Source: Candidatus Binatia bacterium
GTDB lineage: Bacteria > Methylomirabilota > Methylomirabilia > Rokubacteriales > CSP1-6
Assembly (NCBI GenBank): GCA_035544455.1
Contig: DATKEI010000078.1
Coordinates: 1-39,827 of the forward strand
Reading direction: 5' to 3'
Length of the DNA: 39,827 nt
Shown here in pieces: positions 19,088 through 36,427 of this stretch. Positions within the stretch are counted from its first letter, which is position 1. Every line of letters starts with the position of its first letter. Under the pieces are notes generated by a model, which was not told the DNA's origin, did not search any database, and saw only the letters and a program-made list of their open reading frames with translations. A program made the position numbers and the translations under genes.

Positions 19088-19590
19088 GGCGGTCTGTACC
19101 CTCCCGGCTCCGGTCCTCGCTCCGTCCATCCGGGCCGGGTCCAACGCATGGTCCATGCCAGCCAGCGGCCTCCGCGGCTTCGATCCGGCAACGCCCTTGT
19201 TTCGCAGACCTGGGCCGGGCGGACCGGGCGACCGCGTACGGACCGCCGGCCTGCAGTGCCGGGCGCCCTCCCTTGAGCCCCCGAATTGCAAGGAGCACCA
19301 AGACTGGAGGCTCCACTCCACCTTCGAGAGATTCTCCCGTCTCCGATTCGCCGGCGCATATCTGCATTCCGGAGTCGATCGGCAGGCGATGCCGCGCTTT
19401 CACCTGATCTGGCCGAGGCCTGACCGCAGCCGCGCTCCCTGGGACCCGGCGCCCCCGCGCGGGGAATGCGGCCGCGAATCGAACCCAGGGGAACGCTCCT
19501 TCGACAAGTTCCTCGACACGTGGATTCAACCTCTCGATTTCTCGTGGCGTTGCCGGTCCGCCCTCATATCCAGGCGCGCACGCGCCGTCC

Positions 19591-19921: not shown

Positions 19922-20118
19922 GCGCTCCGGTGAGATGAAGAGGCAGCCGAGGCCACCCGGCGGCGCGCCGGGGGCGGGGGGGGCGGCGAGGCGGCGGCCC
20001 TCCAGGAGCCAGGTGGAGCCCGCGGTCGCCGACATGGCGGGGCGGCGGGCGGTGCAGTGAATTTTTCGGTGGCGCATGGACCGTGCGCGGCGCGGGCATG
20101 CGCGGAGAGGGGACGCAG

Positions 20119-20304
20119 ATGCTGAAGAAGCTGTGGGCTTACGCGAAGGACGAGCAGGGCATCGAGACGCTGGAGTGGCTCGGGATCGGCGCGCTGATCT
20201 TGGCGGTGGCCTTCGTCGTGTATCCGGGAACGCTCCAGGCCGAACTCGTGACGGTGGCCACCAACATCGGAGCCGCGCTCACCGGTATCGTGATCGCCCC
20301 GTAG
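20119..20304 (+). CDS. flp: Flp/Fap family type IVc pilin
   Basis: 61 aa: MLKKLWAYAKDEQG / IETLEWLGIGALILAVAF. This has the Flp leader-G/XXXXE[YW] processing motif followed by a hydrophobic helix. GGAGAGGGG RBS. Confidence 0.8.
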   Translation: MLKKLWAYAKDEQGIETLEWLGIGALILAVAFVVYPGTLQAELVTVATNIGAALTGIVIAP

Positions 20305-20353
20305 GCCCGGCCACCGACACCGTCTTCTCAACCCTGAAACCAGCACATGTCGG

Positions 20354-20380
20354 CCCTGGGCTCGATGTTCGAGCCCAGGG
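20354..20380 (+). terminator. Perfect 12-bp-stem hairpin just after flp (attenuator or mRNA-stabiliser candidate)
   Basis: CCCTGGGCTCGA-tgt-TCGAGCCCAGGG. No U-tract. Confidence 0.5.
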
Positions 20381-20398
20381 TCGAGCCGGGGCAAAGCC

Positions 20399-20809
20399 AT
20401 GAGGCGTCTCGCATCCAGGAACCAGCGTGGGACCTCCACCCTGGAGTTGCTCGCGGTTCTGCCCACCCTCCTGTTCGTTTTCCTGGTGGGAGTCGAGATG
20501 AGCAGGGCCTGGCTGACGGCCACCCTGGTGACCAACGCCGTCCGGGAGGGCGTCCGGACCGCATCGGTGGCGCCCGCGGCCACCGCGCCCGCGGAGGGCC
20601 TGGCAAGGATCAACGAGGTCCTGGCGTCTGCGAATCTGACCGCGGCGATAGGCCCGACGGTCACCTGCAATCCGGCCCCCTGCTCCACGGAGACGGACTC
20701 GCGGGTGGAAGCCACCGTGACCGTGAACTTCCAGACCATCGTCCCGATCTTCGTGCCGATGCTGGATTCGGTTCCGATCCAGCAGACTGCCAGCATGCGG
20801 TTCGAGTGA
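20399..20809 (+). CDS. tadE: TadE-like pseudopilin / pilus assembly protein
   Basis: 136 aa. N-terminal RGTSTLELLAVLPTLLFVFLVGVE matches the TadE/TadG N-terminal motif. Confidence 0.8.
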   Translation: MRRLASRNQRGTSTLELLAVLPTLLFVFLVGVEMSRAWLTATLVTNAVREGVRTASVAPAATAPAEGLARINEVLASANLTAAIGPTVTCNPAPCSTETDSRVEATVTVNFQTIVPIFVPMLDSVPIQQTASMRFE

Positions 20810-20826
20810 GCACTCTCCCTGAGATG

Positions 20827-20856
20827 TCCGCAAGGTCAAAGTCCGCAAGGTCAAAG
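20827..20856 (+). repeat. Perfect 15-bp tandem direct repeat (TCCGCAAGGTCAAAG x2) between tadE and cpaB
   Basis: Read directly. It is relatively AT-rich and ends 17 nt before the cpaB ATG. Confidence 0.9.
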
Positions 20857-20872
20857 ATCGAGGTGAAGTGAC

Positions 20873-21784
20873 ATGCGCATGCGAGTCGTGATGATCCTGC
20901 TGGTCGCCTCCGTGATGGGCCTGCTCGCGAGCTTCCTGGTGTACCGCGTGGTCAGCCAGGTGGCGGCCGGCGGCCCCCAGGAGCGGAACACCCCCATCGT
21001 GGTGGCCACCGCGAACATGGGGCTGGCCGACACGGTCACGGCCCAGCACGTGAAGCTCGTGGCCTGGCCGAAGACGTCGGTCCCGTCGGGGTCCTTCGCG
21101 AAGGTCGAGGACGCCGAGGGCAGGGTGGTCCGGGGCTCGATCGTCGCCGGCGAGCCGCTCATCGAGGCCAAGCTGGCCCCCGAGCTGTCGGGCCGGGGCG
21201 GCATCATGCCCATGCTGATCGCCGAGGGGCGCCGCGGGGTGTCGATCAAGGTGGACGACGCCGTCCGGGAGACGGGCTTCGTGATGCCCAACAGCAGGGT
21301 CGACGTCCTGGTGAGCATGGCGAAGACCAAGGACTCCGACGAGCGCATCGCGAAGGTGATCCTGCAGGACATCCCGGTGCTCGCGGCTGGCCAGACGGTC
21401 GAGATGCGCGACAACAAGCCGGTGACCGTGACCACCGTCACCCTGTCGCTCACCCCCGAGCAGACCGAGCGCCTCGCGGTGGCCCAGGCCGAGGGCCGGC
21501 TCACCCTGGCCCTGCGCAACCTGCGCGACAACGCGGTGGTGCAGACGCCGGGGGCGACGCCCACCGCGCTCCTGACCGACCCGGGTGCCGCCCGGCCCGC
21601 GCCACCCGTGGCCACCCCCGCCGCGCCCCGACCACGGGCGGTCCCGGCGGCGGCTCCCCTGCCGCCCCCGAAGCTCGATGCCCGCACCGTGTCCGTCATC
21701 CGGGGCCAGAAGGTGAGCGAGCAGATGTTCATCCGGCAGGACGGCCAGCACTGGGTCGAGCGCACCGACTCCAAGCGGCCGTAG
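20873..21784 (+). CDS. cpaB: Flp pilus assembly protein CpaB (SAF domain + RcpC)
   Basis: 303 aa. N-terminal TM, then a pattern typical of CpaB: VVVATANMGLADTVTAQHVKLVAWPK...GEPL. Confidence 0.88.
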   Translation: MRMRVVMILLVASVMGLLASFLVYRVVSQVAAGGPQERNTPIVVATANMGLADTVTAQHVKLVAWPKTSVPSGSFAKVEDAEGRVVRGSIVAGEPLIEAKLAPELSGRGGIMPMLIAEGRRGVSIKVDDAVRETGFVMPNSRVDVLVSMAKTKDSDERIAKVILQDIPVLAAGQTVEMRDNKPVTVTTVTLSLTPEQTERLAVAQAEGRLTLALRNLRDNAVVQTPGATPTALLTDPGAARPAPPVATPAAPRPRAVPAAAPLPPPKLDARTVSVIRGQKVSEQMFIRQDGQHWVERTDSKRP

Positions 21785-21812
21785 ACCCACGTCGATCGAG
21801 GAGAGAGAATCC

Positions 21813-22289
21813 ATGACCCGCTCGCGCGTGAATCGAATGCTCGCCCTGGCCGCCGGGCTGCTGGCCGGGGCCGTGGCCCTCGGCGGCCCGGCCGCGCCGG
21901 CCGGCGCCCAGACGCTGACCAGGCTCTACCTCTCCAAGGACAAGTCGCAGGTGCTGGATCTCCGCCAGCCGGCGGCGACGGTGGCCGTGGCCAACCCCGC
22001 CATCGCCGACGTGCAGGTGATCTCCCCGACCCGCCTGCTGGTGATTGGCCGGTCGGTGGGCGTCACCTCGCTGGTGACCTTCTCGGACGCGGCGGTGGGC
22101 CACTACGACGTCGTGGTGCACCCCGCCCCGATGGTCGAGGTGGCGGCCCAGCCGCTCCAGGGCGCTCCCCACGGCGTGCTGGTGCAGAGGGCCGACAAGC
22201 TCACCGAGCACTTCTTCACGCGCGACACCACTCAGCAGTGGGTCGAGCTGGGCAGCGTGAAGGTCGAGCCGGACGCCGGGAAGAAGTGA
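21813..22289 (+). CDS. Secreted protein consisting of a secretin/pilus-formation N-terminal domain only
   Basis: Signal peptide. KSQVLDLRQPAATVAVANPAIADVQVISPTRLLVIGRSVGVTSLVTF is paralogous to residues about 40-95 of the downstream secretin. Confidence 0.7.
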   Translation: MTRSRVNRMLALAAGLLAGAVALGGPAAPAGAQTLTRLYLSKDKSQVLDLRQPAATVAVANPAIADVQVISPTRLLVIGRSVGVTSLVTFSDAAVGHYDVVVHPAPMVEVAAQPLQGAPHGVLVQRADKLTEHFFTRDTTQQWVELGSVKVEPDAGKK

Positions 22290-22294
22290 CGGCC

Positions 22295-23671
22295 ATGGAC
22301 CGCCTCCGCCGCCGCCAGCCCGCCGTCCTCGCCCTGGCACTGGCCGTTGCCGTCCTGGCCGGGTCGCACGCGTCCTCCCTCGGCGCGCAGCCGGCCATGG
22401 TCCGGCTCGACGTGACCATCGGGAAGTCGCAGGTGCTGGACCTCCAGGAGCCCTTCACCCGCGTCTCCGTGACCAACCCGGCCATCGCCGACGCCTTCGT
22501 CGTCACCCCGAACCAGATCCTGATCAACGGCAAGGCGGTGGGGACCACGTCGCTGGTGGTCTTCTACCCGGGCAAGACCGTCTTCTTCGACCTGGTGGTG
22601 CAGAGCGACCTGGGCCTCCTGCGGGAGCGCCTGCGGCAGGTGGCCCCCCGGGACGAGATCGACGTTCAGCCCGCCCGCGAGGCCATCATCCTGACCGGCA
22701 GCGTGACGAGCGAGCGGACGATCGCCGGCGCCGCCGAGGTGGCCGCGGTGTTCGCGCCCCGGGGCAAGGTGGTGAACCTCCTGAGCCTCACCGACGCCAA
22801 GCCCCAGCAGGTGATGCTGCAGGTGCACGTGGCCGAGGTGAACCGGGACGCCCTGAGGGAGTTCGGGATCGCCTTCCGCGCCATGGACGCCCCCAACCTG
22901 CGGGGGGGCATGTCCACGCCCGGGCGCAGCCCGTTCTTCGAGATGCTGGGGCTGGCCGCCACCAGTGGGGCGAACTTCTTGCTGCCCGGGGCCAGCTTCT
23001 TCATCGCCAACGAGAACTACGCGGGTCTGGTGCGAGCCCTGAGCGACCGCAACCTCCTCCGCACCCTGGCCAAGCCCAACCTGGTGACCCAGAGCGGCAA
23101 GGAGGCCAAGTTCCTCTCGGGCGGCGAGTTCCCCTTCCCGGTGGCCCAGGAGTTCAACACCATCACCGTGGAATTCAAGGAATTCGGCATCGGCCTCATC
23201 TTCACCCCGGTGGTGGTGGACGGCGAGACCATCAACTTGCAGGTGCGCCCCGAGGTGTCGAGCCTGGACTTCAGCCAGGGGCTGGAGGCGGCCGGGTTCC
23301 GCATCCCAGTGGTTCGCAAGAACGAGGTGGCGACCACCATCAGCATCAAGGACGGCGAGTCGTTCGCCATCGCGGGGCTCATCAACAACGAGGTGCGCCA
23401 GACGGTGGGCAAGATCCCCATCCTCGGAGACATCCCCATCCTGGGTGCCCTCTTCCGCAGCACGCGCTTCCAGAACAACGAGACGGAGCTGCTCTTCCTG
23501 GTGACGGTGAAGCTGGTGCAGCCGGGCCCGCCCGGCACCGCCCCCGACCCGACCAGGCTGATGGAGCTGCGACCGGAGGAGAAGAAGGAGTTCACCTTGG
23601 TTCCGGGCATCCCCGGCGTGGGTGAGGTGGTGACGCGCCCGTTCGGCAAGAGCAACCTGCCGGCACAGTGA
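22295..23671 (+). CDS. cpaC: Tad secretin CpaC/RcpA
   Basis: 458 aa from MDRLRRRQPAVLAL. N-domain, then secretin core (LAKPNLVTQSGKEAKFLSGGEFP, IPILGDIPILGALFRS). Confidence 0.92.
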   Translation: MDRLRRRQPAVLALALAVAVLAGSHASSLGAQPAMVRLDVTIGKSQVLDLQEPFTRVSVTNPAIADAFVVTPNQILINGKAVGTTSLVVFYPGKTVFFDLVVQSDLGLLRERLRQVAPRDEIDVQPAREAIILTGSVTSERTIAGAAEVAAVFAPRGKVVNLLSLTDAKPQQVMLQVHVAEVNRDALREFGIAFRAMDAPNLRGGMSTPGRSPFFEMLGLAATSGANFLLPGASFFIANENYAGLVRALSDRNLLRTLAKPNLVTQSGKEAKFLSGGEFPFPVAQEFNTITVEFKEFGIGLIFTPVVVDGETINLQVRPEVSSLDFSQGLEAAGFRIPVVRKNEVATTISIKDGESFAIAGLINNEVRQTVGKIPILGDIPILGALFRSTRFQNNETELLFLVTVKLVQPGPPGTAPDPTRLMELRPEEKKEFTLVPGIPGVGEVVTRPFGKSNLPAQ

Positions 23672-24891
23672 GCGCAGGCGGAGCCCGGGACATGCTGAGA
23701 ACCGTCATCATCGACTCCGACCCCGAGGCGCAGGGGGCGCTGCGCCGCCTGCTGGCGGCCAGCCCCGCCGTGGCCGTGGTCGGGGAGTTCGGCAGCCTCC
23801 AGGAGTCGATGGCCGAGGCGGCCGCGCGCCGGCCCGACCTGGTCATCGCCGAGGTGCCGGTGCGGCCCGGCGAGGCCGACCTCGGCCGCGGCACCAAGGC
23901 GATGGAGTCGCTGGTCCGGGCCGTGCCCGATGCGGCCATCTTCGCCACCGGCCCCGCCCTGCCGGCCGAGGCGGTGATCCAGCTCATGCGGGCCGGCGCC
24001 ATCGAGGTGCTCACCCGCCCGGTGGAACGGGAGGCGCTGCTGGGCGCCCTCGACAAGGTGCTGCGGCTGCGCCGCTCGGCCGCCCCGGCCCGCCAGGCCG
24101 GGCGCATCGTGTCGGTGTTCTCCACCAAGGGCGGCCTCGGCGTGACCACCATGGCCAGCAACCTGGCCGTGTGCCTGGCCGAGCATGCGCCGGAGCGCGT
24201 CGCCCTGATCGACCTCGACACCCGGCAGTCCGACATCGCCACCCACCTGAACCTCCGGCCCACCTACTCGGTGCTCGACGCCCTGGAGAGCCTGGACCGG
24301 CTGGACGAGTCGTTCCTGCAGGGGCTCATGGTGAAGCATCCGAGCGGCCTGCTGGTGCTGCCGGGGCCCACCCGCATCGAGCGGGCGCAGCTCGGCGGGG
24401 AGCAGGTGCGGGTGGCCCTCGACAGCATCCGCGCGCACTTCGCCCACGTGGTGATCGACCTGCGCCACGACCTGGACGGCGGGACGATTGCGGCCCTGGA
24501 GGCCTCGGACACCATCTTCTTCCTCACCAGCCTCGACGTGTGCACCCTGCGCTCGAGCGCCGCGGGGCTGGCCGCCTTCCGGCACCTCGGACTGAACCTC
24601 CAGCGAGTCCAGGTGGTGGTGATGCGCGAGGACACGGCGGAGGACGTCACCCTGAAGCACGCCCGGGACACCCTCGGCGTCGCCGTGTCGTGGAAGACCC
24701 CCAGCGATTACCCGGCGGTGGTGGCCTCGATCAACTCGGGGCAGCCGGTCGTGAGCGCGGCGCCCCGGTCGCGGATCGCGCGCAACCTGCGCCAGCTCGC
24801 GGCCACGCTGCTGCCTCCCCCCGCCAGCCGGCGCGGCGCCGCCGCGCTGGCCCGACTGCTCTGGACCCCCAAGGGATCGACGGGAGACTAG
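23668..24891 (+). CDS. cpaE: CpaE/TadZ: atypical receiver-like domain + ParA/MinD-type ATPase
   Basis: GTG 23668 overlaps the cpaC stop (GTGA). Alternative ATG at 23692. Deviant Walker A STKGGLGVTT. In the receiver-like domain the expected phospho-acceptor position reads DLVIAEV. Confidence 0.85.
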   Translation: MSAGGARDMLRTVIIDSDPEAQGALRRLLAASPAVAVVGEFGSLQESMAEAAARRPDLVIAEVPVRPGEADLGRGTKAMESLVRAVPDAAIFATGPALPAEAVIQLMRAGAIEVLTRPVEREALLGALDKVLRLRRSAAPARQAGRIVSVFSTKGGLGVTTMASNLAVCLAEHAPERVALIDLDTRQSDIATHLNLRPTYSVLDALESLDRLDESFLQGLMVKHPSGLLVLPGPTRIERAQLGGEQVRVALDSIRAHFAHVVIDLRHDLDGGTIAALEASDTIFFLTSLDVCTLRSSAAGLAAFRHLGLNLQRVQVVVMREDTAEDVTLKHARDTLGVAVSWKTPSDYPAVVASINSGQPVVSAAPRSRIARNLRQLAATLLPPPASRRGAAALARLLWTPKGSTGD

Positions 24892-26262
24892 ATGGCACTC
24901 TTCCAGCGCAAGCTCGCCCTCCGCCCCGAGCCGTCCCGGCCCGCGGCGGTCGCCCCCCAGCCCGAGGCGCCGCCGAAGGTCGAGGTGGCCTACTACGAGC
25001 TGAAGAACCGCATCCACCGCCAGCTCATCGAGCGCCTCGACCTGGCCAAGCTGACCCTCCTGCCGGTGGACGCGGTGCAGCAGCAGATCCGCCGGGTGGT
25101 GGAGGACATGCTGGCCGGCGAGGACACCCCCCTGAGCCGGCAGGAGCGGGAGAAGCTCGTCACCGAGGTCGAGCACGAGACGTTCGGTCTCGGGCCCATC
25201 GAGCCCCTGATGCAGGACCCGACCGTGTCCGACATCCTCGTCAACGGGGCCCGGAACATCTACGTGGAGCGCCGGGGCAAGCTCGAGCGCACCCGGGTGA
25301 TCTTCCGCGACGACGCGCATCTCCTGCAGGTGATCGAGCGCATCGTGTCCCGCGTGGGCCGGCGCGTGGACGAGTCGTCGCCCATGGTCGACGCCCGCCT
25401 GCCCGACGGCTCGCGGGTCAACGCCATCATCCCCCCGCTGGCCCTGGACGGCCCGGTGCTGTCCATCCGGCGCTTCTCCGTGGACCCCTTCCGGGCGTCG
25501 GACCTGGTGGGCTTCGGCACCCTCACGCCCGATCTCGTGGAGATCCTCCGCGCCGCCGTGCAGTCGCGGCTCAACATCCTCGTGTCAGGGGGCACCGGCG
25601 CCGGCAAGACGACGCTGCTGAACGTCCTGTCCAACTTCATCCCCGGGCGCGAGCGCATCGTCACCATCGAGGACTCGGCCGAGCTGCAGCTCCAGCAGGA
25701 GCACGTGGTGCGCCTGGAGACGCGGCCCCCCAACATCGAGGGCGCGGGCGCGGTGACCCAGCGCGACCTGATCCGGAACGCCCTGCGGATGCGGCCCGAC
25801 CGCATCGTGGTGGGCGAGGTGCGCGGCCCCGAGGTGCTGGACATGCTTCAGGCCATGAACACCGGGCACGACGGGTCCATCTCCACCGTGCACGCCAACT
25901 CCTCCCGCGACGCCCTGTCGCGCATCGAGACCATGGTGCTGATGGCGGGCCTGCCGCTGCCGATGCGAGCCATGCGCGACTACATCGCCTCCGCCCTCGA
26001 CATGATCATCCACCTGGCGCGGCTGTCCGACGGCACGCGCAGGGTGGTCCGGGTGACTGAGGTGGTGGGCATGGAGGAGGACGTGATCACCACGCAGGAC
26101 ATCTTCGTCTTCGAGCAGGAGGGGATCGACGCCGAGGGGCGCGTGATGGGCACCCACCGCGCCACCGGCATCCGGCCCAAGTTCAGCGATCGGCTGCTCC
26201 AGGCGGGCGTCCACCTGGGCCTCGAGGTGTTCGACCCCCACCGGCACCAGGCGGTGCGCTAG
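24892..26262 (+). CDS. cpaF: CpaF/TadA secretion ATPase
   Basis: 456 aa. Walker [10 protein letters not shown], Walker [25 protein letters not shown] His box. Confidence 0.95.
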
Positions 26263-26264
26263 CC

Positions 26265-27200
26265 ATGGCCCTGCTCGTCGCCCTCCTGGTGTTCCTGATC
26301 GTCGCGACCCTGGTGGTCGGGCTGTGGTGGGCGTCCGAGCGGCGCCGCCAGATGCGCGACCGCCTGGCCACGGCCGGCGTACCGGACGACACACAGATCC
26401 TCCGGCCCGGCATCGACCAGCCCGGAGCGCTCGGCACGGCCCTCTCCGGCAGCAAGTACTACGGCAAGCTGGGCGACCTCGTCGTCCAGGCCGGCTTCAA
26501 GCAGTCGACGGCGGACTGGGCGCTGGTGGTGATCGCCTTCGCCGCCGTCGGGGGCGCCGCTGCCTGGCTGCGGACCGGCTCGGTCGCCTGGGGCATCCTC
26601 GCCATGCCGCTGGCCGCCGCCATTCCCGCCTGCTATCTCGCCTATCGCCGGCACCGCCGCCTGACCCTCTTCGGGGCCCAGCTGCCGGAGGCGCTCGACA
26701 TGCTCGCCCGCGCCATTCGGGCCGGCAACGCCCTGAGCGGGGCCATCCGCCTCGTGGGCGAGGAGATGCCGGACCCGATCGGCGAGGAGTTCCGCCAGGT
26801 GTCCGAGGAGATCCGGCTTGGCATGGAGCCGAGCGAGTCGCTGTCGAGGCTGCAGTACCGGGTGCCCGTCGAGGACATGGTGTTCTTCTGCACCGCCATC
26901 CGCATCCAGCGCGGATCCGGGGGCAACCTGGCGGAGGTGCTCGACCGCCTGGCCGAGGTCATCCGGGAGCGGTTCAAGATCCTCAGCTACGCCCGCGTGC
27001 TCTCGGCCCAGCACAAGTGGTCGGCCATCCTCGTCGGCCTCAGCCCTGCCATCGCCGCGGTGGCGTTCGCCATCCTCCAGCCAACCTACTTCAGCGAGCT
27101 CCTCACGAACCCCATCGGCCCGACTCTGATTGGCGCCGGGCTGGCGCTCGAGGCTATCGGCTTCTTCGCAGTCTGGCGCATCGCCAAGATCAAGGTCTGA
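26265..27200 (+). CDS. tadB: TadB (GspF-like inner-membrane platform protein)
   Basis: 311 aa. T2SSF-type domain (LPEALDMLARAIRAGNAL) flanked by TM segments. Confidence 0.88.
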   Translation: MALLVALLVFLIVATLVVGLWWASERRRQMRDRLATAGVPDDTQILRPGIDQPGALGTALSGSKYYGKLGDLVVQAGFKQSTADWALVVIAFAAVGGAAAWLRTGSVAWGILAMPLAAAIPACYLAYRRHRRLTLFGAQLPEALDMLARAIRAGNALSGAIRLVGEEMPDPIGEEFRQVSEEIRLGMEPSESLSRLQYRVPVEDMVFFCTAIRIQRGSGGNLAEVLDRLAEVIRERFKILSYARVLSAQHKWSAILVGLSPAIAAVAFAILQPTYFSELLTNPIGPTLIGAGLALEAIGFFAVWRIAKIKV

Positions 27201-27204
27201 CGCC

Positions 27205-28149
27205 ATGGATCCCACTATCGTCGTCGTTCTCTCCTTCGTGATCGTGGCCGGTTTCACCCTCCTGATTGGCATCACCCTCATGCGGCTCTGGCCGGCCGTG
27301 CGCGCGGGGCGACTGGCCGGAACAGCGGCGGGAGCCTCCGGCGATGCGTCCATCTTCCGCTGGTCGGATGCACCCGAGTCGGGCATCCGGGGCATCCTCC
27401 ACCACCTGGGCAGGTCCGCCGCCCCCCGGACCGAGGCGGGCCGCTCGCGCTACCGGAGCAAGCTCGCGTGGGCGGGGTATCACGACCCGAACGCCCTGCT
27501 CCTCTTCGTGGGCGCCAAGGTGGCGCTGGCCCTGTTGGTGGGCTCGGGCTACTTCATCTACGGGATCACCGTCCAGCGCGTCCTGCCCAACCTCTTCGCC
27601 GTCAGCCTGGGGCTGGCGGCGGCCGGGTTCTTCCTGCCGGACTTCTGGCTGCACAACCGGATCAAGGCCCGCCGACGCGAGATCGTCCATGCCCTGCCGG
27701 ACGTCCTCGACATGCTCACGGTGTGCGTCGAGGCCGGGATGGGCTTCGACGCCGCCGTGACGCGCGTGGCCGAGCAGCCGGAGGCGCGGTCCAGCCCGCT
27801 CCATCAGGAGCTGCGGCGGACGAGCCTCGAAGTCCGGGCCGGGCGCCCGCGCGCCGAGGCGTTGCGCGCGCTGGGTGAGCGTACAGGGGCCCAGGAAGTG
27901 AAGGCTGTGGTGGGGGCCTTCATCCAGACCGAGAAGCTCGGCACGCCGCTCGGCAAGACCCTGCGGATCCACGCCGAGGCCGCCCGCGTCCAGCGCCGTC
28001 ATCGGGCAGAGGAACGGGCGCATCTGGCGCCCCTCAAGATGCTCGGGCCCACGGTCTTCTTTCTGTTCCCCGCGTTCTTCCTGGTCGCCCTCGCCCCGTC
28101 ATTGCTGAACATCCTCGCCCTCCTGAAGGCGATCGGTGGCACGAGATAG
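27205..28149 (+). CDS. tadC: TadC (GspF-like inner-membrane platform protein)
   Basis: Starts MDPTIVVVLSF (ATG 27205). LPDVLDMLTVCVEAGMGF motif, C-terminal TM. Confidence 0.88.
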   Translation: MDPTIVVVLSFVIVAGFTLLIGITLMRLWPAVRAGRLAGTAAGASGDASIFRWSDAPESGIRGILHHLGRSAAPRTEAGRSRYRSKLAWAGYHDPNALLLFVGAKVALALLVGSGYFIYGITVQRVLPNLFAVSLGLAAAGFFLPDFWLHNRIKARRREIVHALPDVLDMLTVCVEAGMGFDAAVTRVAEQPEARSSPLHQELRRTSLEVRAGRPRAEALRALGERTGAQEVKAVVGAFIQTEKLGTPLGKTLRIHAEAARVQRRHRAEERAHLAPLKMLGPTVFFLFPAFFLVALAPSLLNILALLKAIGGTR

Positions 28150-28178
28150 ATGGAGTCTTACCCATGGAGGCATTGGGC

Positions 28179-28799
28179 ATGAGCCGATCTGCCGTACTGA
28201 TGGCCCTTTCGCTGGCCCTCGGAGTTCTGCCGCTGGAGCGCGCCCTCGCTCAGGACATCAGCGCCGAGGTGCGTACGTGGGCTGGCCAGTCGCTCCGTCT
28301 CGATCAGGTGTCGATCGAGGTGTTCTACACGATCTTCCCTCCGCCGGCAGACGATGGGCAGGCCTCGGGAAGCGCAAGCATGGAGGGTCTGTCCATGCTG
28401 GACCGAGACGTCCGGACCGGCTCGGGCCGCCTGGAGGCCGGACAGATGTTCGGCTCGATGCGCTCCCTCGGAGCCATGCTCGATCGGGGGCCAGATCCCA
28501 TGCAGGGGAACAAGAGCTCTGACGCGGTGACGTTCTACCGGGGTGGGGTGGCCCAGCAGGTGCCGGTGGCGAACCTCGCGGCCATGATGTTCGAGCGGAC
28601 GCCGGTGCGCGACAGCGGCCTGCCGCCCTACGTGGCCCCAGCGCACTATCGGTTTGCCGCCACGGCGGTCCTCACCGATGGACGGCGTGTGGAAGGAGAC
28701 TACGTCAACCTCGGCACCGCCATCGTCCGCGGCACGACGCAGGAAGGACGCGTCGAGATCCCCTGGCAGCAGATCGAGAGCATCCGGTTCGCCCGGTGA
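28179..28799 (+). CDS. Secreted hypothetical protein (no recognisable domain)
   Basis: Signal peptide MSRSAVLMALSLALGVLPLERALA-QD. GGAGG lies 8 nt upstream of ATG 28179 (alternative ATG 28164). Confidence 0.6.
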   Translation: MSRSAVLMALSLALGVLPLERALAQDISAEVRTWAGQSLRLDQVSIEVFYTIFPPPADDGQASGSASMEGLSMLDRDVRTGSGRLEAGQMFGSMRSLGAMLDRGPDPMQGNKSSDAVTFYRGGVAQQVPVANLAAMMFERTPVRDSGLPPYVAPAHYRFAATAVLTDGRRVEGDYVNLGTAIVRGTTQEGRVEIPWQQIESIRFAR

Positions 28800-28824
28800 G
28801 CTGTCACGGAGAGGAGGGACGGCG

Positions 28825-30183
28825 ATGAGGCGCGGGCGCTTCACGAATCAGCGCGGCACGGTCCTGCTCTTCACCACGGCGCTGGTCTTGCCCCTCATGA
28901 TCATCTTCGGGGGGCTCGGCATGGACGTCGCGTATTACGGCACGGTCGACACCGAGCTGCAGCGCTCCATGGACGCGGCATCCCTGGCCGGGGCCGGCAA
29001 GCTGGGGTTCACCACGGAGCAGTTCCCCGACGCCCGCAACTTCGCCCGCCAGTACGGGCAGCTCAACGCCTACCGCGTGGGCACCGTCGATCTGGACCTG
29101 AACGTGGGGAACGCGCCGGACGGCGACATCGTGTTGGGCATCTGGGACCCGGACGCGCGGACGTTCACGCCTTCCCTGAACGGCGTTCTCGTGGACGCCG
29201 TGCGCACGACCACCTCGGCGCCGGTGCCGATGTCGTTCCTCCGCCTGGCCGGCATCAACACGATGACGGCGCGGGCGTCGGCCATCGCCTGGGCGCCGCC
29301 GCCGACCATCCCGCCCTCGTGCATCTTCCCGGTAAGCCTCACCGACACGCCGTTCGAGCCCGGGGGCGCCTCGGGCTGTGGGCGGCCGGCCCGGTTCATC
29401 TCGAGCTCCACCAGCTCGGAGATCGGCTTCAACACCGCGGGCTGGGTGAACCTGCAGGGATGCGGGACGCCCAATGCCAACATGACGCGGGATGCCATCG
29501 ACGACGCGGCCTCGGGGAACTGCCCGACCACCGACCGTCGCGCCGGCGACTACGTGGGCACCAACGGGGGCATGATCCAGTCCGGCTTCAACCGGATCGT
29601 TCACCACTTCCCGATCAAGTTCAACGAGTCCGGCATGATCGAGATCGACGAGACCGACCCGAACACGGGACAGCCGCTGAGGAGCTACGAGGGGCCGGGC
29701 TGGTCGACGGTGGTGCCGGTGGTGGCCGCCTGCACGTGCTCGAGCGGCTGCCCGACGGCCAGCCTTCCGTTCGGCCTGTCCATGCTGGCGCGGCTGATCC
29801 GCGGCGACTTCTCGTGTGGGTCGCTGTTCGTGGGCACCGCCTTCGCCCAGGGCGAGGGAGGCGGTGGCAGTGGCACCGGCGGCGACTGCGGCTGCCCCGC
29901 CAACGTCACCCAGAACCGGCCCATCGTGGGATGGACCCGCCTGGTGATCACCCAGGTCATCGACGGGGGGCGATGCCTGGTGCACAACCCCCACGACACC
30001 GGGAACGCGCAGTACTGGCCGCCCCAGGGGGGCAACCCGAACCCGTGTGGCACCCGCCCATCCGAGCCGGGCGACTCTGCCCTCCGCGAGATCTACGGCT
30101 ACTACCTCTGCGAGCTGTTCGACACGCCGGGGGAGGCCGCGGGACCGGCGAGCGCGCGGGGCAAGCCGAAGCTGGTGCGGTAG
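28825..30183 (+). CDS. tadG: TadG-like pilus assembly protein with a Cys-rich C-terminal region
   Basis: N-terminal RGTVLLFTTALVLPLMIIFGGLGMDVAYY (Tad N-terminal motif). 452 aa. GGAGAGGAGGG RBS. Confidence 0.7.
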   Translation: MRRGRFTNQRGTVLLFTTALVLPLMIIFGGLGMDVAYYGTVDTELQRSMDAASLAGAGKLGFTTEQFPDARNFARQYGQLNAYRVGTVDLDLNVGNAPDGDIVLGIWDPDARTFTPSLNGVLVDAVRTTTSAPVPMSFLRLAGINTMTARASAIAWAPPPTIPPSCIFPVSLTDTPFEPGGASGCGRPARFISSSTSSEIGFNTAGWVNLQGCGTPNANMTRDAIDDAASGNCPTTDRRAGDYVGTNGGMIQSGFNRIVHHFPIKFNESGMIEIDETDPNTGQPLRSYEGPGWSTVVPVVAACTCSSGCPTASLPFGLSMLARLIRGDFSCGSLFVGTAFAQGEGGGGSGTGGDCGCPANVTQNRPIVGWTRLVITQVIDGGRCLVHNPHDTGNAQYWPPQGGNPNPCGTRPSEPGDSALREIYGYYLCELFDTPGEAAGPASARGKPKLVR

Positions 30184-31190: not shown

Positions 31191-33881
31191 ATGACCATCC
31201 CGGAAACTCCATGGAGTCGCGCTGGCCACTCGCCGCTGCTGCGGGGCCCCGGGCCGGCGCACGTTCGTCAGGGAAACCTCACTGCCGCCTTTGTCTGGTC
31301 GGCGGCCCTTCACACCGTGGCCCTGACCTGGGTGGTCCTGCTGATCCAGGCGCCCCCGGGCGGAAGCGCTCTCGACGTCTTTCCGGTTGCCGGCCCGACC
31401 GACATCGCTCGCCAGGTGGCCGGCCCGGAGCCGGTCCTGACCGGCCCCGAGACTGCCGGCGTGGCGGCGCCAGGGCCAGGCACCGGCCTCGAGGTGAGGG
31501 TGCGGCCCAGCCCGCCCCGCCCGGCGCGCCCCGGAGGAGATGTGGGGACGGCGCCGTCGCGGCCGACTCTGGCGGCCCCCGTCCCGGCCACGGCCGGCCC
31601 GGGGGTGGCAACCTCCACGGCGCGCGCGGTCCCTCCGCCTTCTCCGCCCGCGCCGCGCTCGCACCTGGCGAGCCGGCCGGCCGTCGAGCGCGTGGTGGGG
31701 CTGGCCCTGCTGCTGGCCCCGGGAGCGCCGGCGGCGGCAACTCCCCCTCCCGTTGCGTCGGCAGCGCAGGTCCCGCGACTCTCGGCGGTCGAGGATGTCG
31801 TGGCCGGGCCCCCGGGACACGGCAGCGGCGCCCCGGGCGAGGCTCTCCCGGTCGTGCGGGTCCTGGCCGACATCCAGGAGGCCGGCCCCGCGGTCGCGCC
31901 CAGCCCGACGCGCCCGGCTACCCGAGCCGCTCCGGTGCCGTCGCCGCCAGCCCCGCGCGAGACGCGGCTGGTTCGCGCCGGCCCGGAAGAGCCGCCTGCG
32001 CCAGCCACGGCCGCCCCGGCAAGACCGGCGGTACAGGTCGTCGCCCCCGACGATCACAGGCAGGTCCCGTCGCCTGCCCGGCTCCGCCCCGCGCCGGTGC
32101 TGGCGCTCGGGGAGCATCCCGATCCACCGGCGACTCGCGAGATGTCGGCGCCGACAGCCGAGGCACCCCTGGAGCCGGCGCCGCCGGCCATTGCGCAGCG
32201 CGCACCCGCGGCCGTCGAAGCGCCGGCCCCGGAGCCGCATGTGCCGTTGCCCCTGGCGGCGGATCCTGCCTGGCCCGCTCTGCCCCCTCCGGGGCCACCG
32301 GTGATCTCTCCGGCGCAGATCATCGAGGCCTCCCCGCCCGTTCCATCGCCAGCGCCCCGGGGCCAGCCGGCGCCGGCGGAGGCGCCGTCGACCCCGGCCG
32401 AGGCACGCGTGGCCACCCCGGAACCGCAGCATCCCGCGCCCACCCCGGTGCCGGCCCTGCTTCCTGCGCCGGCCGCGACGGCCGCGCACCACAGCACTCC
32501 GGACGCAGTGCCGGCGGCCCCGCCCCCGGCACCTCCCGCGCCGGCCAGCATCGCCTCCCGGCCCGCCGAGGTGGCCGTTCCCGTGGCGGAGGCGCCTCCG
32601 GCAGCGCCCGCCGCGGCGTCTCCTGCCATGGCTCCTCCCGTCGCGCATCCTGCGATGGCCTCGGGCGCGACTCCCAGCGCACCCCCCGCCGCTCCGCCCG
32701 CGCCGGCCGCTGCTGCTCTCGCGGGCACACCCGAGCGCGCCCCGGTGCCGGAGCCGCTGCCCCGGCCACCGCCCGCTCCCCGGATCCCGCAGTCACCCGC
32801 GCCCGCCCCTCACGCGGCCAACCCGCTGCTCCCGCGGCCCGGCACCGTGCTCGGCCTTGGCCTCGCGCGCGTCCGGGTGGAGCTGGAGGCGCCGCGGCAG
32901 AAGGTGACCGACCGCGAGACGGACCGCGTGTCGGGGCGGGTGTTCGGCGGCCCCGCGGGGGGCGTGTCGCTCCACGTGAACGGCGTCGAGACCGCCGTCG
33001 AGCTGAAGGAGCGGGGTTTTCGCGCGGCAGTCAGCCTGCGGCCCGGCCTCAACTCCATTCGCGCCGTCGTGGCTGGCCCCGGAGGCGCCGAGGCCGAGGA
33101 CGCGGTGACGGTCGAGTACGTCCCGCCGCTGCCGGCGGACGGCATCCTGCTGGCGAGCCCGCGCGACGGGCTCACCCTGGGGGCGGACGACCCGCCGGCG
33201 GTGGTGGTGGAGGGCCGGCTGGGAGATCCCGCGGCCACCGCGGTGTGGCTGGTGGCCAACGACCGGCGGGTCCAGGTGGCGGCCGCGGGGGGCCGGTTCC
33301 GCCACGTGGTGCCGGTGCTGGAGCCGGCGGTGCGCATCTGGGCCGAGCTGGACTCGCCGAACGGGGCCCCGCCGCCGCGCAGCGAGGCCGTCACCGTGCA
33401 TGCGGGGGCGGTCCGGCCCGCGGCGGGCGTGCTCGTGATGGACTGGGTGTCCGACCCCGAGGCGGTCGAGGTGACGGCGAGCTGGCGGGGCAGTCCGGAG
33501 CGCCTCGATGTCGCGCCGGTCCCCGTGTCCCTCCGACCGCTCGGGGGCGAGCGCGACCGCCGGCCGGCCGCCTTCTACCTCGGCAACCTGAGACCGGGGA
33601 TCTACACGTTCGCCGTGCGCGCCCGGGGCGCGGGGGCGCGGGCCGGCGTTCACTCGACCCTCTATCTCGGGAACGGCGGGGCCGTGCAGCAGCGCACGCT
33701 GGCCCCGGTGTCCCTCGGGCCCGGCGAGCGCGTCGTGCTGGCGCGCGTGCTCCACCCGCACGGGGTCTTCTGGGACGAGGACGCCTGGTTCACCGGCCGG
33801 AGCGAGAGCGCCGAGGCTATCACCAAGTTCCGCTTCCCCGAGGGCGTCACCTGGGTGGAGCGCAAGGCGGATGTCCAGTGA
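31191..33881 (+). CDS. 896-aa membrane-anchored protein: TonB-like N-terminal TM (S-x3-H), ~500-aa Pro/Ala-rich spacer, ~330-aa beta-rich C-terminal region
   Basis: TM FVWSAALHTVALTWVVLLI. Extreme P/A low complexity from about residue 90 to 560. The C-terminal part has normal composition (VSGRVFGG...LHVNGVE...). Confidence 0.65.
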   Translation: MTIPETPWSRAGHSPLLRGPGPAHVRQGNLTAAFVWSAALHTVALTWVVLLIQAPPGGSALDVFPVAGPTDIARQVAGPEPVLTGPETAGVAAPGPGTGLEVRVRPSPPRPARPGGDVGTAPSRPTLAAPVPATAGPGVATSTARAVPPPSPPAPRSHLASRPAVERVVGLALLLAPGAPAAATPPPVASAAQVPRLSAVEDVVAGPPGHGSGAPGEALPVVRVLADIQEAGPAVAPSPTRPATRAAPVPSPPAPRETRLVRAGPEEPPAPATAAPARPAVQVVAPDDHRQVPSPARLRPAPVLALGEHPDPPATREMSAPTAEAPLEPAPPAIAQRAPAAVEAPAPEPHVPLPLAADPAWPALPPPGPPVISPAQIIEASPPVPSPAPRGQPAPAEAPSTPAEARVATPEPQHPAPTPVPALLPAPAATAAHHSTPDAVPAAPPPAPPAPASIASRPAEVAVPVAEAPPAAPAAASPAMAPPVAHPAMASGATPSAPPAAPPAPAAAALAGTPERAPVPEPLPRPPPAPRIPQSPAPAPHAANPLLPRPGTVLGLGLARVRVELEAPRQKVTDRETDRVSGRVFGGPAGGVSLHVNGVETAVELKERGFRAAVSLRPGLNSIRAVVAGPGGAEAEDAVTVEYVPPLPADGILLASPRDGLTLGADDPPAVVVEGRLGDPAATAVWLVANDRRVQVAAAGGRFRHVVPVLEPAVRIWAELDSPNGAPPPRSEAVTVHAGAVRPAAGVLVMDWVSDPEAVEVTASWRGSPERLDVAPVPVSLRPLGGERDRRPAAFYLGNLRPGIYTFAVRARGAGARAGVHSTLYLGNGGAVQQRTLAPVSLGPGERVVLARVLHPHGVFWDEDAWFTGRSESAEAITKFRFPEGVTWVERKADVQ

Positions 33882-34609
33882 GGCGGCGGGCGTTCCTGGG
33901 CGGAGGGCTCGCCGCCGCGGCGGCCGCCTCACTCGCGGCGAGCCCGGCCGACCTGAACCAGGCCGGCATGGCCGCCTACGGGCGCGGCGACTACGCGGCG
34001 GCCGAGCAGCTCTTCACCCGGGCCGCCGCCCGTGCCCCGCGCGACCCGCTGCTCCACTACCACCGTGGCGTGGCGCTGAGCCGCCTCTCGCGGTGGAGCG
34101 AGGCCACCGCCGCCTACCAGTCGGCCCTGCGCCTGGGCCCGCCCCCGGAGCTGGCCGCGACGATCCGGGAGGCGATGCGGGCGGCCGCGCCGTACACGGA
34201 GGCCCGGCCGGTGCCGCGGCGCGGGCCCGAGGAGCACGAGGTGCCGCTCGATCGCATGGCGGGCGGGTGGATCGCCGAGGTGGTGCTGAACGACACCCGC
34301 ACCGCGCGCTTCCTGGTGGACACGGGGGCCAGCATCTGCGTGATCGCCCCCGGCCTGGCCCGTGAGCTGGGCATCGCCCCCGGCCCCGGCGCCGAGGAGA
34401 TCCTGCTCCAGACCCTGTCCGGGCAGACCAGGGGGCCAGTGGTGCGCATCCCCGTGCTGCGGGTGGGCGACGCCGAGAGCCGATCGGTGCCGGCCGTGGT
34501 GCACGAGACGGGCCCCTCGATGGACGGCATCCTGGGCAACACCTTCCTCGGTCGCTTCACCGTCACGGTGGACCCTGGCCGCCGGGTCCTGAGCCTCCGC
34601 TCGAGGTGA
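33878..34609 (+). CDS. Tat-signal TPR + retropepsin-like (clan AA) aspartic protease fusion
   Basis: GTG 33878 overlaps the upstream stop (GTGA). Twin-arginine signal RRRAFLGGGLAAAAAASLAA. TPR-like AGMAAYGRGDYAAAEQLF...YQSALRL. Active-site FLVDTGAS. Confidence 0.75.
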   Translation: MRRRAFLGGGLAAAAAASLAASPADLNQAGMAAYGRGDYAAAEQLFTRAAARAPRDPLLHYHRGVALSRLSRWSEATAAYQSALRLGPPPELAATIREAMRAAAPYTEARPVPRRGPEEHEVPLDRMAGGWIAEVVLNDTRTARFLVDTGASICVIAPGLARELGIAPGPGAEEILLQTLSGQTRGPVVRIPVLRVGDAESRSVPAVVHETGPSMDGILGNTFLGRFTVTVDPGRRVLSLRSR

Positions 34610-34867
34610 TGGCGGTGCGGCCGGGTCGAGCGCTGCCCCGCGCGGCAGGGGCGAGCGGCCCGCGCGCCGGCCGGGCCCGGGTCGTCCGCGCCCGGCGCGC
34701 CGGGGTCCCGCCTGTCGGGATCCGGCCCGCCGGGCGGCCAGCCCGCCGGATCCAGCTTGCCGGGGTCCGGCGCGCCGGGGCCCCCACCTGCCGAACCTGC
34801 CGGGGGGCCTTGACGACCCCGATGCGCCGCGGGATCGTCGGCCAGGGGCACCGGGCGAGCCAGGCGT

Positions 34868-35383
34868 TCAGCCCATCGCGCTCACGAGGAGGCCGCCGAG
34901 CAGGGCGATGATGGCCCCCACCGGCATCCGCGTCTTCCGGGTGGCCCGGTGGGCCGCCAGCAGCACCAGCGCCACCGCCCCGCCGATGATCTGGGAGGCG
35001 GCCAGCACCAGCAGCGCCCGCTGCCAGCCGAGCGACGCCCCCAGCAGGGCCATCAGCTTGATGTCGCCCCCCCCCATGGCGCCACGGCTCACCACGGCCA
35101 CCACCAGCACCACCCCGCCTCCGGCGACGGCGCCCAGCGCCGCCTCCCCGAGCGCCTCCAGCCCGCGCGCGGCGGCCAGGGCGAGCGCGTACGCGAGGGT
35201 GGGGAGCGTCACGACGTCCGGGATGATGCGGCTGCGGAGATCCAGCACGGTGACGAGGGCGAGGGCGGCGAGCACCGGCAGCAGCAGCGCCCAGCGCACG
35301 CCGGGGCCCAGCCGGCCCAGCGCCAGCAGGGCCAGCAGCGCGGCGATGGCGCACACCCCGGCCAGGGGCAGCGGCCGGCGCAC
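34868..35383 (-). CDS. cpaA: A24-family prepilin peptidase (CpaA/TadV type, no methyltransferase domain)
   Basis: Catalytic Asp contexts RIIPDVV and GGGDIKLMA. Polytopic. The GTG start at 35383 (alternative 35356) lies 17 nt after the upstream gene's stop. Confidence 0.8.
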   Translation of the reverse strand: MRRPLPLAGVCAIAALLALLALGRLGPGVRWALLLPVLAALALVTVLDLRSRIIPDVVTLPTLAYALALAAARGLEALGEAALGAVAGGGVVLVVAVVSRGAMGGGDIKLMALLGASLGWQRALLVLAASQIIGGAVALVLLAAHRATRKTRMPVGAIIALLGGLLVSAMG

Positions 35384-35400
35384 CGCGGCGAGGGCCGCGG

Positions 35401-36129
35401 CTACCTCGGGCTTGAGGGCCAGGCGGGGGACCCCCCTGGCGACGGCTGGGCGGGGCCCGGGCCGGGCGGGGGCAGCAGGCCCGCGCCCACCCGGTAGGAC
35501 GCGAGCTGCTCCTCGAACTGGGCGGCGCCGCGCCGGCCGGCCCACTTCACGTGAAAGCCGACCTCCGGCGCGAACCAGTACTCGTCGGCGTCCCCCGCCG
35601 CACCTTCTCGCACGACCTTCATGGCCTCGAAGCGCCCCGCCGGCACCTCCACCACCTCGGGGCCCAAGATGGTGAACGTGTCCACAACCTCGCGCTGGCC
35701 GGAGCGATCCTCGTAGGTGCCGCGATGCTTCCACCGGCGGCCGGCCTCCATGGGCCACATGAACAGGGGCTGCGGCGGGGTCATGCGCGACTCGACGGTG
35801 TCCCGCCTCAGGGTGCCCACCAGGTGGAGGTCGCGGGTGTAGAGGTGGTCGACCTCGCCGATGCGGAGCACGTAGAGCGGGGTGGAGCCGAACATCCGCA
35901 CCTCGACCATCTCGACGGTGCGGGTGCCCCGGTCGGCGCCGAAGGTCCAGTCGAACGTCCAGCGGTCGCCCGGTCGCCACTCCGGCGGCGCGAGCCAGGC
36001 CGGCGCCGGCGGGCCGGCGGGGGGGAGCGTCACCGGCGCCTGCGGCGCGGCGCAGGCCGCGATTCCGAGGGCGAGGGCCCCCACGGCGGTCGATCGGCCC
36101 CAGGCCCGGAGGAACCGGCGATCCGACAT
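35401..36129 (-). CDS. Tat-type lipoprotein, unknown function
   Basis: MSDRRFLRAWGRSTAVGALALGIAAC: twin-arginine motif plus lipobox. 242 aa. Confidence 0.65.
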   Translation of the reverse strand: MSDRRFLRAWGRSTAVGALALGIAACAAPQAPVTLPPAGPPAPAWLAPPEWRPGDRWTFDWTFGADRGTRTVEMVEVRMFGSTPLYVLRIGEVDHLYTRDLHLVGTLRRDTVESRMTPPQPLFMWPMEAGRRWKHRGTYEDRSGQREVVDTFTILGPEVVEVPAGRFEAMKVVREGAAGDADEYWFAPEVGFHVKWAGRRGAAQFEEQLASYRVGAGLLPPPGPGPAQPSPGGSPAWPSSPR

Positions 36130-36195
36130 GTCGGGCGGATGATCGCACGGGGCCGCGCGAAATGGCAAGAAGCCGGACCCGCCGGGGGTCCGGCA

Positions 36196-36210
36196 TGGCA
36201 CGGGGCTGGC
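36196..36210 (+). promoter_or_regulatory. Sigma-54 (-24/-12) promoter-like motif TGGCACGGGGCTGGC
   Basis: Perfect -24 TGGCACG, correct spacing to the -12 GC. It lies 53 nt upstream of the ATG at 36263. Confidence 0.45.
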
Positions 36211-36262
36211 GGCACTGGAGGGCGCGGGCGGGATGGCCCGGCGCCGGAAGGAGGAGCGCGAG

Positions 36263-36427
36263 ATGAAGAACCTGGGGATCGTCGCGATCGCCGTCGGCAT
36301 CCTGCTGATCCTGCTCACCCTCGCCGGCGTCATCGGTCAGGAGAGCCCGCGGGTGGCCGTGATCGGCGCGGCGGTGATCCTGGTGGTCGGGATCTTCCTG
36401 TACCGGCGCCATCCCGCGGGATCGTGA
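36263..36427 (+). CDS. Small two-TM membrane protein (54 aa)
   Basis: MKNLGIVAIAVGILLILLTLAGV...VIGAAVILVVGIFLY. GGAAGGAGGAG RBS. Confidence 0.5.
   Translation: MKNLGIVAIAVGILLILLTLAGVIGQESPRVAVIGAAVILVVGIFLYRRHPAGS

Follow-up and report, generated by a model that had tools for sequence, protein, structure and literature searches.

The terminal gene of a Tad operon

The stretch of DNA analysed here (39,827 nucleotides of contig DATKEI010000078.1, assembly GCA_035544455.1, from a Candidatus Binatia bacterium placed by GTDB in the Rokubacteriales, phylum Methylomirabilota), which we refer to as the window, carries an operon for a Tad (tight adherence) pilus whose last gene encodes a protein joining a tetratricopeptide repeat (TPR) module to a retropepsin-like aspartic protease. 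From its first gene to its last, the operon encodes a Flp-like pilin (20083-20304), TadE, RcpC/CpaB, a stand-alone secretin-N protein, the secretin, TadZ, TadA, TadB, TadC, an unknown protein of ~200 amino acids, TadG, a putative lipoprotein, a protein of 896 amino acids and finally the protease. The protease gene lies on the same strand as the core tad genes and is contiguous with them, a synteny that is kept in divergent relatives. The coordinates of all these features are collected in Table 1.

The start of the gene overlaps the stop of the gene ahead in the tetranucleotide GTGA, just as the initial annotation had described it, with the GTG at 33878-33880 and the upstream TGA at 33879-33881. 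No other ATG, GTG, or TTG occurs in the 50 codons ahead of the conserved DLNxAG anchor, and the context in which this GTG stands, GAGCG-AAGG-N-GA ahead of an NTGA overlap, is common to the relatives. A Shine-Dalgarno-like element, AAGGCGGA, precedes it, and the translation begins (M/V)RRRAFLGGGLAAAAAASLAASPA. The open reading frame (ORF) is a real gene: GC at third codon positions is 0.94-0.99 (GC3 ~0.95) and second positions are the lowest, the same frame-specific pattern as in the flanking genes, in a window with a GC content of 70-78% (78% locally at the region of the signal peptide). An assembly artefact could be ruled out, given that soil metagenome runs from separate, independent studies contain one contig with zero differences and several near-identical contigs that span the junction without indels.

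A search around the gene's 3′ end gave GC-rich inverted repeats only, with neither an intrinsic terminator nor a sigma-70 promoter. The 258 bp that separate the protease gene from the convergent A24 peptidase gene are crowded with imperfect repeats of this kind at 34650-34800 (e.g., 34689-34703 with 34722-34736, 93% complementary), with no T-tract terminator.

Table 1. Features of the protease gene, of its product and of the surrounding Tad locus.
Feature	Position	Strand	Evidence or remark
TPR and retropepsin-like aspartic protease gene, whole ORF	33878..34609	+	243 amino acids plus stop; final + strand gene of the Tad operon
Shine-Dalgarno-like element	33864..33871	+	6 nt ahead of the GTG, within the end of the upstream gene
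GTGA start/stop overlap with the upstream gene (31191-33881)	33878..33881	+
Signal peptide, residues 1-24, RRRAFL motif and Gly/Ala-rich h-region	33878..33949	+	AlphaFold2 helix 5-19, low pLDDT
Two canonical TPR repeats and capping helix, with PLLHYHRG	33944..34198	+	Pfam, PDB profile match, AlphaFold2
Disordered, variable linker, residues 108-118	34199..34231	+	pLDDT <50 at 109-116; alignment columns variable
Single retropepsin-type lobe, residues 119-243	34232..34606	+	PF13650, TIGR02281, Foldseek
Catalytic motif D148-T-G-A-S152, hydrophobic L-V ahead	34319..34333	+	Alignment of 119 sequences
Psi-loop motif I218-L219-G220-N221	34529..34540	+	Alignment of 119 sequences
Core Tad/Flp genes, same operon	20083..30183	+	Pfam; Flp-like ORF
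896-amino-acid protein: transmembrane helix, Pro/Ala-rich spacer of ~500 amino acids, C-terminal tandem immunoglobulin-like domains	31191..33881	+
Convergent pair: lipoprotein of no known family (35401-36336), then A24 prepilin peptidase (34868 to ~35400)	34868..36336	-

Domain architecture and active-site motifs

A TPR-like segment followed by a single retropepsin-type domain with a DTGAS motif had been noticed from the letters of the window, and both Pfam and the fold search agree with this. Residues 134-223 match Asp_protease_2 (PF13650; E 7e-20, 71.9 bits against a cut-off of 24.3), gag-asp_proteas (PF13975) scores E 3e-18 and 66.7 bits against a cut-off of 28.2, and TPR_2, TPR_16, and TPR_1 match residues 26-88, while TIGR02281 stays just under its threshold (see below). 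A structural model was built with AlphaFold2 on 119 homologues of 51-88% identity, the same set in which the conservation of motifs was assessed. It has a mean pLDDT (predicted local distance difference test) of 83.7 and shows the TPR part (residues 23-107, ~90) and a beta-rich lobe (119-242, ~88) as separate domains; the predicted TM-score of the whole, 0.51, is consistent with two domains that are independent of each other and flexibly tethered. The TPR helices pair as 23-35/39-52 and 57-69/73-85 and are followed by a capping helix at 90-107. In a sequence-profile search of the PDB this part matched consensus TPR structures and has the structural residues typical of such repeats; TPR matches dominated that search, which gave nothing informative on the protease lobe. 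The motif PLLHYHRG within the TPR segment is specific to the family.

The two sequence hallmarks of retropepsins are a pair of hydrophobic residues followed by DTG and then A, S, or T, and, further downstream, two hydrophobic residues followed by Gly (PMC4140852). Both were found in the window protein, as LVD148TGAS and as I218-L219-G220. D148, T149, G150, and A151 are invariant in the alignment and S152 is kept in at least 90% of the sequences, as are, without exception, G217, L219, G220, and N221. It is evident that the DTG aspartate, whose conservation had been named as decisive in the initial annotation, has been retained throughout. With only one lobe per chain, the protein would have to form a homodimer to be active.

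When the model was compared with the PDB by Foldseek, APRc of Rickettsia conorii came first (5c9f; TM-score 0.71 on the target, probability 1.0, 21% identity), followed by 5c9b, the proteases of HIV and FIV (TM-scores 0.66-0.71) and single lobes of pepsins. APRc (RC1339, PDB 5C9B/5C9D/5C9F), which reportedly processes autotransporters, shares with the window protein the hydrophobic-hydrophobic-DTGA motif and the downstream hydrophobic-hydrophobic-Gly, but it is anchored by three predicted transmembrane helices and has neither a TPR nor a link to a pilus operon, whereas the window protein has a predicted cleavable signal peptide and a TPR module. The bacterial retropepsin-like proteases named so far include APRc, PerP, and SpoIIGA, and APRc itself, which has one lobe, functions as a homodimer (PMC4140852).

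Conservation at the end of the Tad operon

More than 317 proteins of ~244 amino acids share the full architecture of TPR and protease. The named relatives come from metagenome-assembled genomes (MAGs) of Rokubacteria, NC10, or Methylomirabilota, and the databases name them no more specifically than "aspartyl protease family protein" or "TIGR02281 family clan AA aspartic protease." A homologue search with the protease domain alone returned the same family only, with no reach into other phyla. We collected 46 loci from species-representative genomes, together with several metagenome contigs, and searched them with the Tad proteins of the window. All the loci that have a window-type protease and enough upstream DNA show the same order of secretin, TadZ, TadA, TadB, TadC, one further gene, TadG, another further gene, the protein with immunoglobulin-like (Ig) domains and, at the end, the protease. 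This synteny is conserved in ~20 distinct loci down to 43% identity (orthologues 43-88%), and in every locus from Methylomirabilota (Rokubacteria) with sufficient upstream sequence the protease is the last co-directional gene of the operon. The association with tad genes, on which the initial reading of the locus depended, thus holds in every orthologous locus that extends far enough upstream. Some of the syntenic contigs are labelled Gemmatimonadales, Limnocylindria, or Verrucomicrobiia; considering that they have the same synteny and 48-59% identity, these labels may be binning errors.

Two layouts could be recognised at the 3′ end of the operon. In the first one (layout a), that of the window, the start of the protease gene overlaps the stop of the Ig-protein gene; of ten distinct loci, nine have an overlap of 4 nt and one has an overlap of 1 nt. 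In the second (layout b), which belongs to one clade of Rokubacterial Tad operons, a protein with squalene-cyclase/prenyltransferase repeats (~299 amino acids) and a DUF362 protein (331 amino acids) are encoded between the Ig protein and the protease. These inserted genes are all joined by 4-nt overlaps and the cyclase-like protein contains QNPDGGW repeats, an unusual content for a pilus operon (L050:10004-11895, L052:9965-11862, L053:19152-21043, and also L014, L016, L018, L020, and L027).

A sister clade outside Tad loci and the resemblance to TadD

The same order of TPR and Asp_protease_2, in proteins of ~240 amino acids that are 37-50% identical and conserve DTGA, was also found in Rokubacteria at 14 loci (L021, L023-L026, L028-L030, L032, L034-L036, L038, and L043; e.g., L025:9770-10663) with no tad gene within 10 kb. 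These proteins differ at the N-terminus, where they have a conserved "GQWL" hydrophobic segment resembling a membrane anchor, whereas the Tad-linked type has a signal peptide with DLNEAGKAAY. A maximum-likelihood tree groups the GQWL proteins in one clade (SH-aLRT support 100%) but resolves poorly how the Tad-linked sequences branch. In a group of NC10 loci (L040-L047; e.g., L042:9614-10372) a related retropepsin lobe carries an N-terminal CarboxypepD_reg (PEGA-like) domain in place of the TPR.

The occurrence of the architecture among genes other than tad means that the TPR belongs to the protease family itself and is not a captured TadD, the TPR lipoprotein of the Tad loci of Aggregatibacter and Pseudomonas. 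The window protein is like TadD in having TPR repeats and being encoded in a tad operon, but it lacks a lipobox, has two repeats only and includes a protease domain. Its gene is the fifth after tadC, the four in between being those for the unknown ~200-amino-acid protein, TadG, the putative lipoprotein and the 896-amino-acid protein. The idea that the TPR occupies the position of TadD consequently had to be abandoned, as the gene is not beside tadC and the architecture recurs outside tad loci. We have likewise rejected the window protein as a TadD homologue, given the missing lipobox Cys, the distance from tadC, a C-terminal half that is a protease and the absence of any match to a TadD-specific model.

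A functional version of the same idea would make the protein an assembly factor in the manner of BepA, a TPR-bearing periplasmic protease that acts for LptD and BAM, with the TPR replacing the missing TadD and the protease controlling the quality of secretin or outer-membrane assembly. Pfam scans turned up no other TPR protein in the locus, the operon conserves a secretin together with an extra stand-alone secretin-N protein, and the TPR has a similarity to PilW, weak and non-specific as it is (E 0.017). We consider this role quite improbable in view of the same features that separate the protein from TadD, namely just two repeats with no lipobox Cys, a gene away from tadC, an architecture that exists outside Tad loci and no TadD-specific model matched.

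Signal peptide and export

Residues 2-8 of the window protein read R-R-R-A-F-L-G and agree with a twin-arginine translocation (Tat) motif, which had led to the N-terminus being called a textbook Tat signal. The RRxFL is indeed present, but this description is overstated: the whole signal has 24 residues with an n-region of 1-4, the hidden Markov models for Tat signals score under their cut-offs (PF10518, 10.1 vs 22.7 bits; TIGR01409, 10.5 vs 16.7 bits), and the motif is not conserved. The mature N-terminus could be recognised in 99 homologues; of these, 12 have RR ahead of two hydrophobic residues and a single one has xRRxFL. Their signals are mostly ~25 amino acids long, rich in Leu and of the Sec type. 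No Cys is found at the N-terminus of the window protein nor conserved in the signal peptides of the homologues, and it is therefore not a lipoprotein.

Export through Tat would mean that folding, and perhaps dimerisation, takes place in the cytoplasm before TatABC carries the enzyme across the membrane, the RRRAFL motif and a weakly hydrophobic Ala/Gly h-region serving as its signal. Apart from the motif itself, this alternative can draw on an 88%-identical relative with KRRAVL, on another (P0024) with RRAFLGS, and on the h-region of the window protein, whose fraction of L, I, V, and F is 0.20 vs a mean of 0.42 in the family. However, an N-terminus rich in Arg, Ala, and Gly is to be expected anyway from the 78% local GC, and the retropepsin fold needs no cofactor that would demand assembly in the cytoplasm. 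Together with the short n-region, the scores below threshold and the Leu-rich Sec-type cores of most homologues, this makes the Tat route rather unlikely.

Possible roles of the protease

The window protein is most likely an aspartic endopeptidase that is secreted into the periplasm and soluble there, and it would be one of the bacterial retropepsin-like proteases, as are APRc and PerP. Being a fixed terminal gene of the tad operon, with a start that overlaps the preceding stop, it most likely has its job on the Tad machine, and we hold it to be somewhat probable that it is proteolytically active in the periplasm in the service of the Tad system, a proposal for which we infer its location, its dimerisation and its activity. 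The signal peptide would be removed around residue 24, and two of the single-lobe domains would then pair around a common active site, to which each chain brings its Asp148 and its Ile-Leu-Gly psi loop. The two-repeat TPR, tethered by the flexible 11-residue linker, would most likely serve to dock the enzyme onto a partner or a substrate peptide, and the protease would most likely mature, release or turn over an extracytoplasmic part of the Tad machine. It is possible that the linker (residues 108-118) is also a site of autoprocessing, a suggestion that comes from inference only.

The closest functional parallel would be PerP of Caulobacter crescentus, a protease that acts in the periplasm and shortens the periplasmic domain of PodJ, a bitopic factor of polarity and pilus biogenesis (PMC2714070); it is also cited as a retroviral-type protease (PMC4140852). 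The window protein would be like PerP in being a periplasmic retropepsin-like protease, and it also has a score on TIGR02281. PerP is an enzyme of MEROPS A32 and of the TIGR02281 type, and is not known to be encoded in the cpa/tad locus or to have a TPR module.

Some observations weigh against this reading. Firstly, TIGR02281 (clan_AA_DTGA), the model by which JGI names the relatives, gives the window protein 55.6 bits, a near miss below the NCBIfam cut-off of 57.95. Secondly, in layout b the protease gene overlaps that of DUF362 by 4 nt and not that of the Ig-domain protein, indicating that the coupling belongs to the 3′ end of the operon and not to the pair of giant protein and protease; translational coupling to the giant protein, as originally proposed, is borne out in that the 4-nt overlap is conserved, but the partner is not specific. 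Thirdly, the sister clade sits between a divergent gene for a DUF169/URO-D fusion and one for an ACT-malic enzyme, and with such a metabolic context the family may have a general periplasmic role, and the link to Tad could be a lineage-specific hitch-hiking.

A further alternative is a housekeeping protease of general periplasmic use, with no Tad-specific substrate, whose gene in this phylum does no more than share the transcript of the tad genes. The sister clade in its URO-D/malic-enzyme neighbourhood and the NC10 clade with a CarboxypepD_reg N-domain both favour it, showing that several contexts make use of the protease lobe. Nevertheless, we find it unlikely, as the terminal position and the overlapping codons are kept across the two layouts down to 43% identity, and the Tad-linked sequences have an N-terminus (DLNEAGKAAY) and a signal type of their own, distinct from those of the fully supported non-Tad clade.

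If the protease does act on the Tad machine, its substrate has to be sought among the extracytoplasmic components. The initial annotation had envisaged a processing step, for pilin, pseudopilin, or the Pro-rich protein, beyond the one carried out by the A24 prepilin peptidase. An alternative leader peptidase for Flp, TadE, or TadG could be argued from layout b, in which there is no A24 gene inside the tad locus. However, A24 enzymes cut leaders off on the cytoplasmic side of the membrane, whereas the window protein is predicted to be exported and soluble, which makes the cleavage of prepilin or pseudopilin leaders by it topologically unlikely; moreover, an A24 peptidase (Peptidase_A24, E 6e-19) is encoded ~260 bp from the protease gene in the window, and A24 genes are often unlinked. 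We regard such a function as extremely improbable and, given the topology and the A24 gene next door, a substitute for the prepilin peptidase was rejected.

The best candidate substrate is the Pro-rich protein, the co-conserved bitopic protein of 896 amino acids with its Pro/Ala tether and Ig domains. Its homologues are found in all the Tad-linked loci, and its last 337 amino acids are predicted by AlphaFold2 as all-beta (pLDDT 83), resembling in Foldseek multi-Ig ectodomains and the extender repeats of adhesins and nothing more specific. Co-occurrence and adjacency, by analogy with PerP and PodJ, would point to it as the substrate, a possibility that we see as doubtful. Retropepsins tolerate Pro at P1′, which would suit a Pro-rich substrate. 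A wider proposal is that in Methylomirabilota the Tad pili might depend on a further, periplasmic proteolytic step that described Tad systems lack. The dimer of TPR-retropepsin would cut the Pro/Ala tether of the Ig protein, or another accessory protein, and such a cut would free or activate an envelope-spanning or surface module, a checkpoint like that of PerP and PodJ inside a pilus operon. We put this forward as a speculative and distinctly unlikely scenario.

Other features of the locus

The lipoprotein gene of the convergent pair (35401-36336, lipobox IAAC) has a homologue just downstream, and also convergent, in 27 of the 30 loci with a protease of the Tad-linked type. It is kept even where the A24 peptidase is absent. 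It may share a functional module with the protease. Upstream, the stand-alone T2SS-T3SS_pil_N protein (21813-22289, + strand; L053:8113-8574 in a relative) stands directly ahead of the secretin and is conserved in the relatives, and is thus a fixed part of this type of Tad operon. The Flp-like prepilin (20083-20304, + strand) has G|IETLEW at its predicted cleavage site, with Trp replacing the usual Tyr of the "EY" motif.

At the flp end of the operon there is a gene for a PAS and sigma-54-activator protein (bacterial enhancer-binding protein) both in the window (17675-19399, - strand) and in a relative (L053:4503-5894), and control of this type of Tad operon by sigma-54 may thus be conserved. 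In the closest long contig, from a Rokubacteria MAG of 1.64 Mb, genes of a Tc-toxin-like complex (TcA/TcB-binding, SpvB, TcdB_toxin_midN, and RHS; L001:13634-20666) follow the Tad locus at a distance of ~3 kb; the window has none of them.

Significance of the conserved context

Our search of the literature found nothing that links a retropepsin-like protease with Tad pili, nor anything on the Tad loci of Rokubacteria. The class of the protein is known and generically annotated; its conserved context in a Tad operon is previously unreported. The practical value is modest, this being a generically annotated class in an uncultured organism, with a function that is predicted only. Overall, the Tad operons of Rokubacteria contain a conserved accessory block of five to seven genes that is missing from model Tad systems, and throughout an uncultured soil phylum a retropepsin-like protease is a fixed component of this pilus operon. 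Little is understood of the few retropepsin-like proteases of bacteria, and this fixed membership in an operon offers a defined genetic context in which the natural substrate of one of them can be sought.

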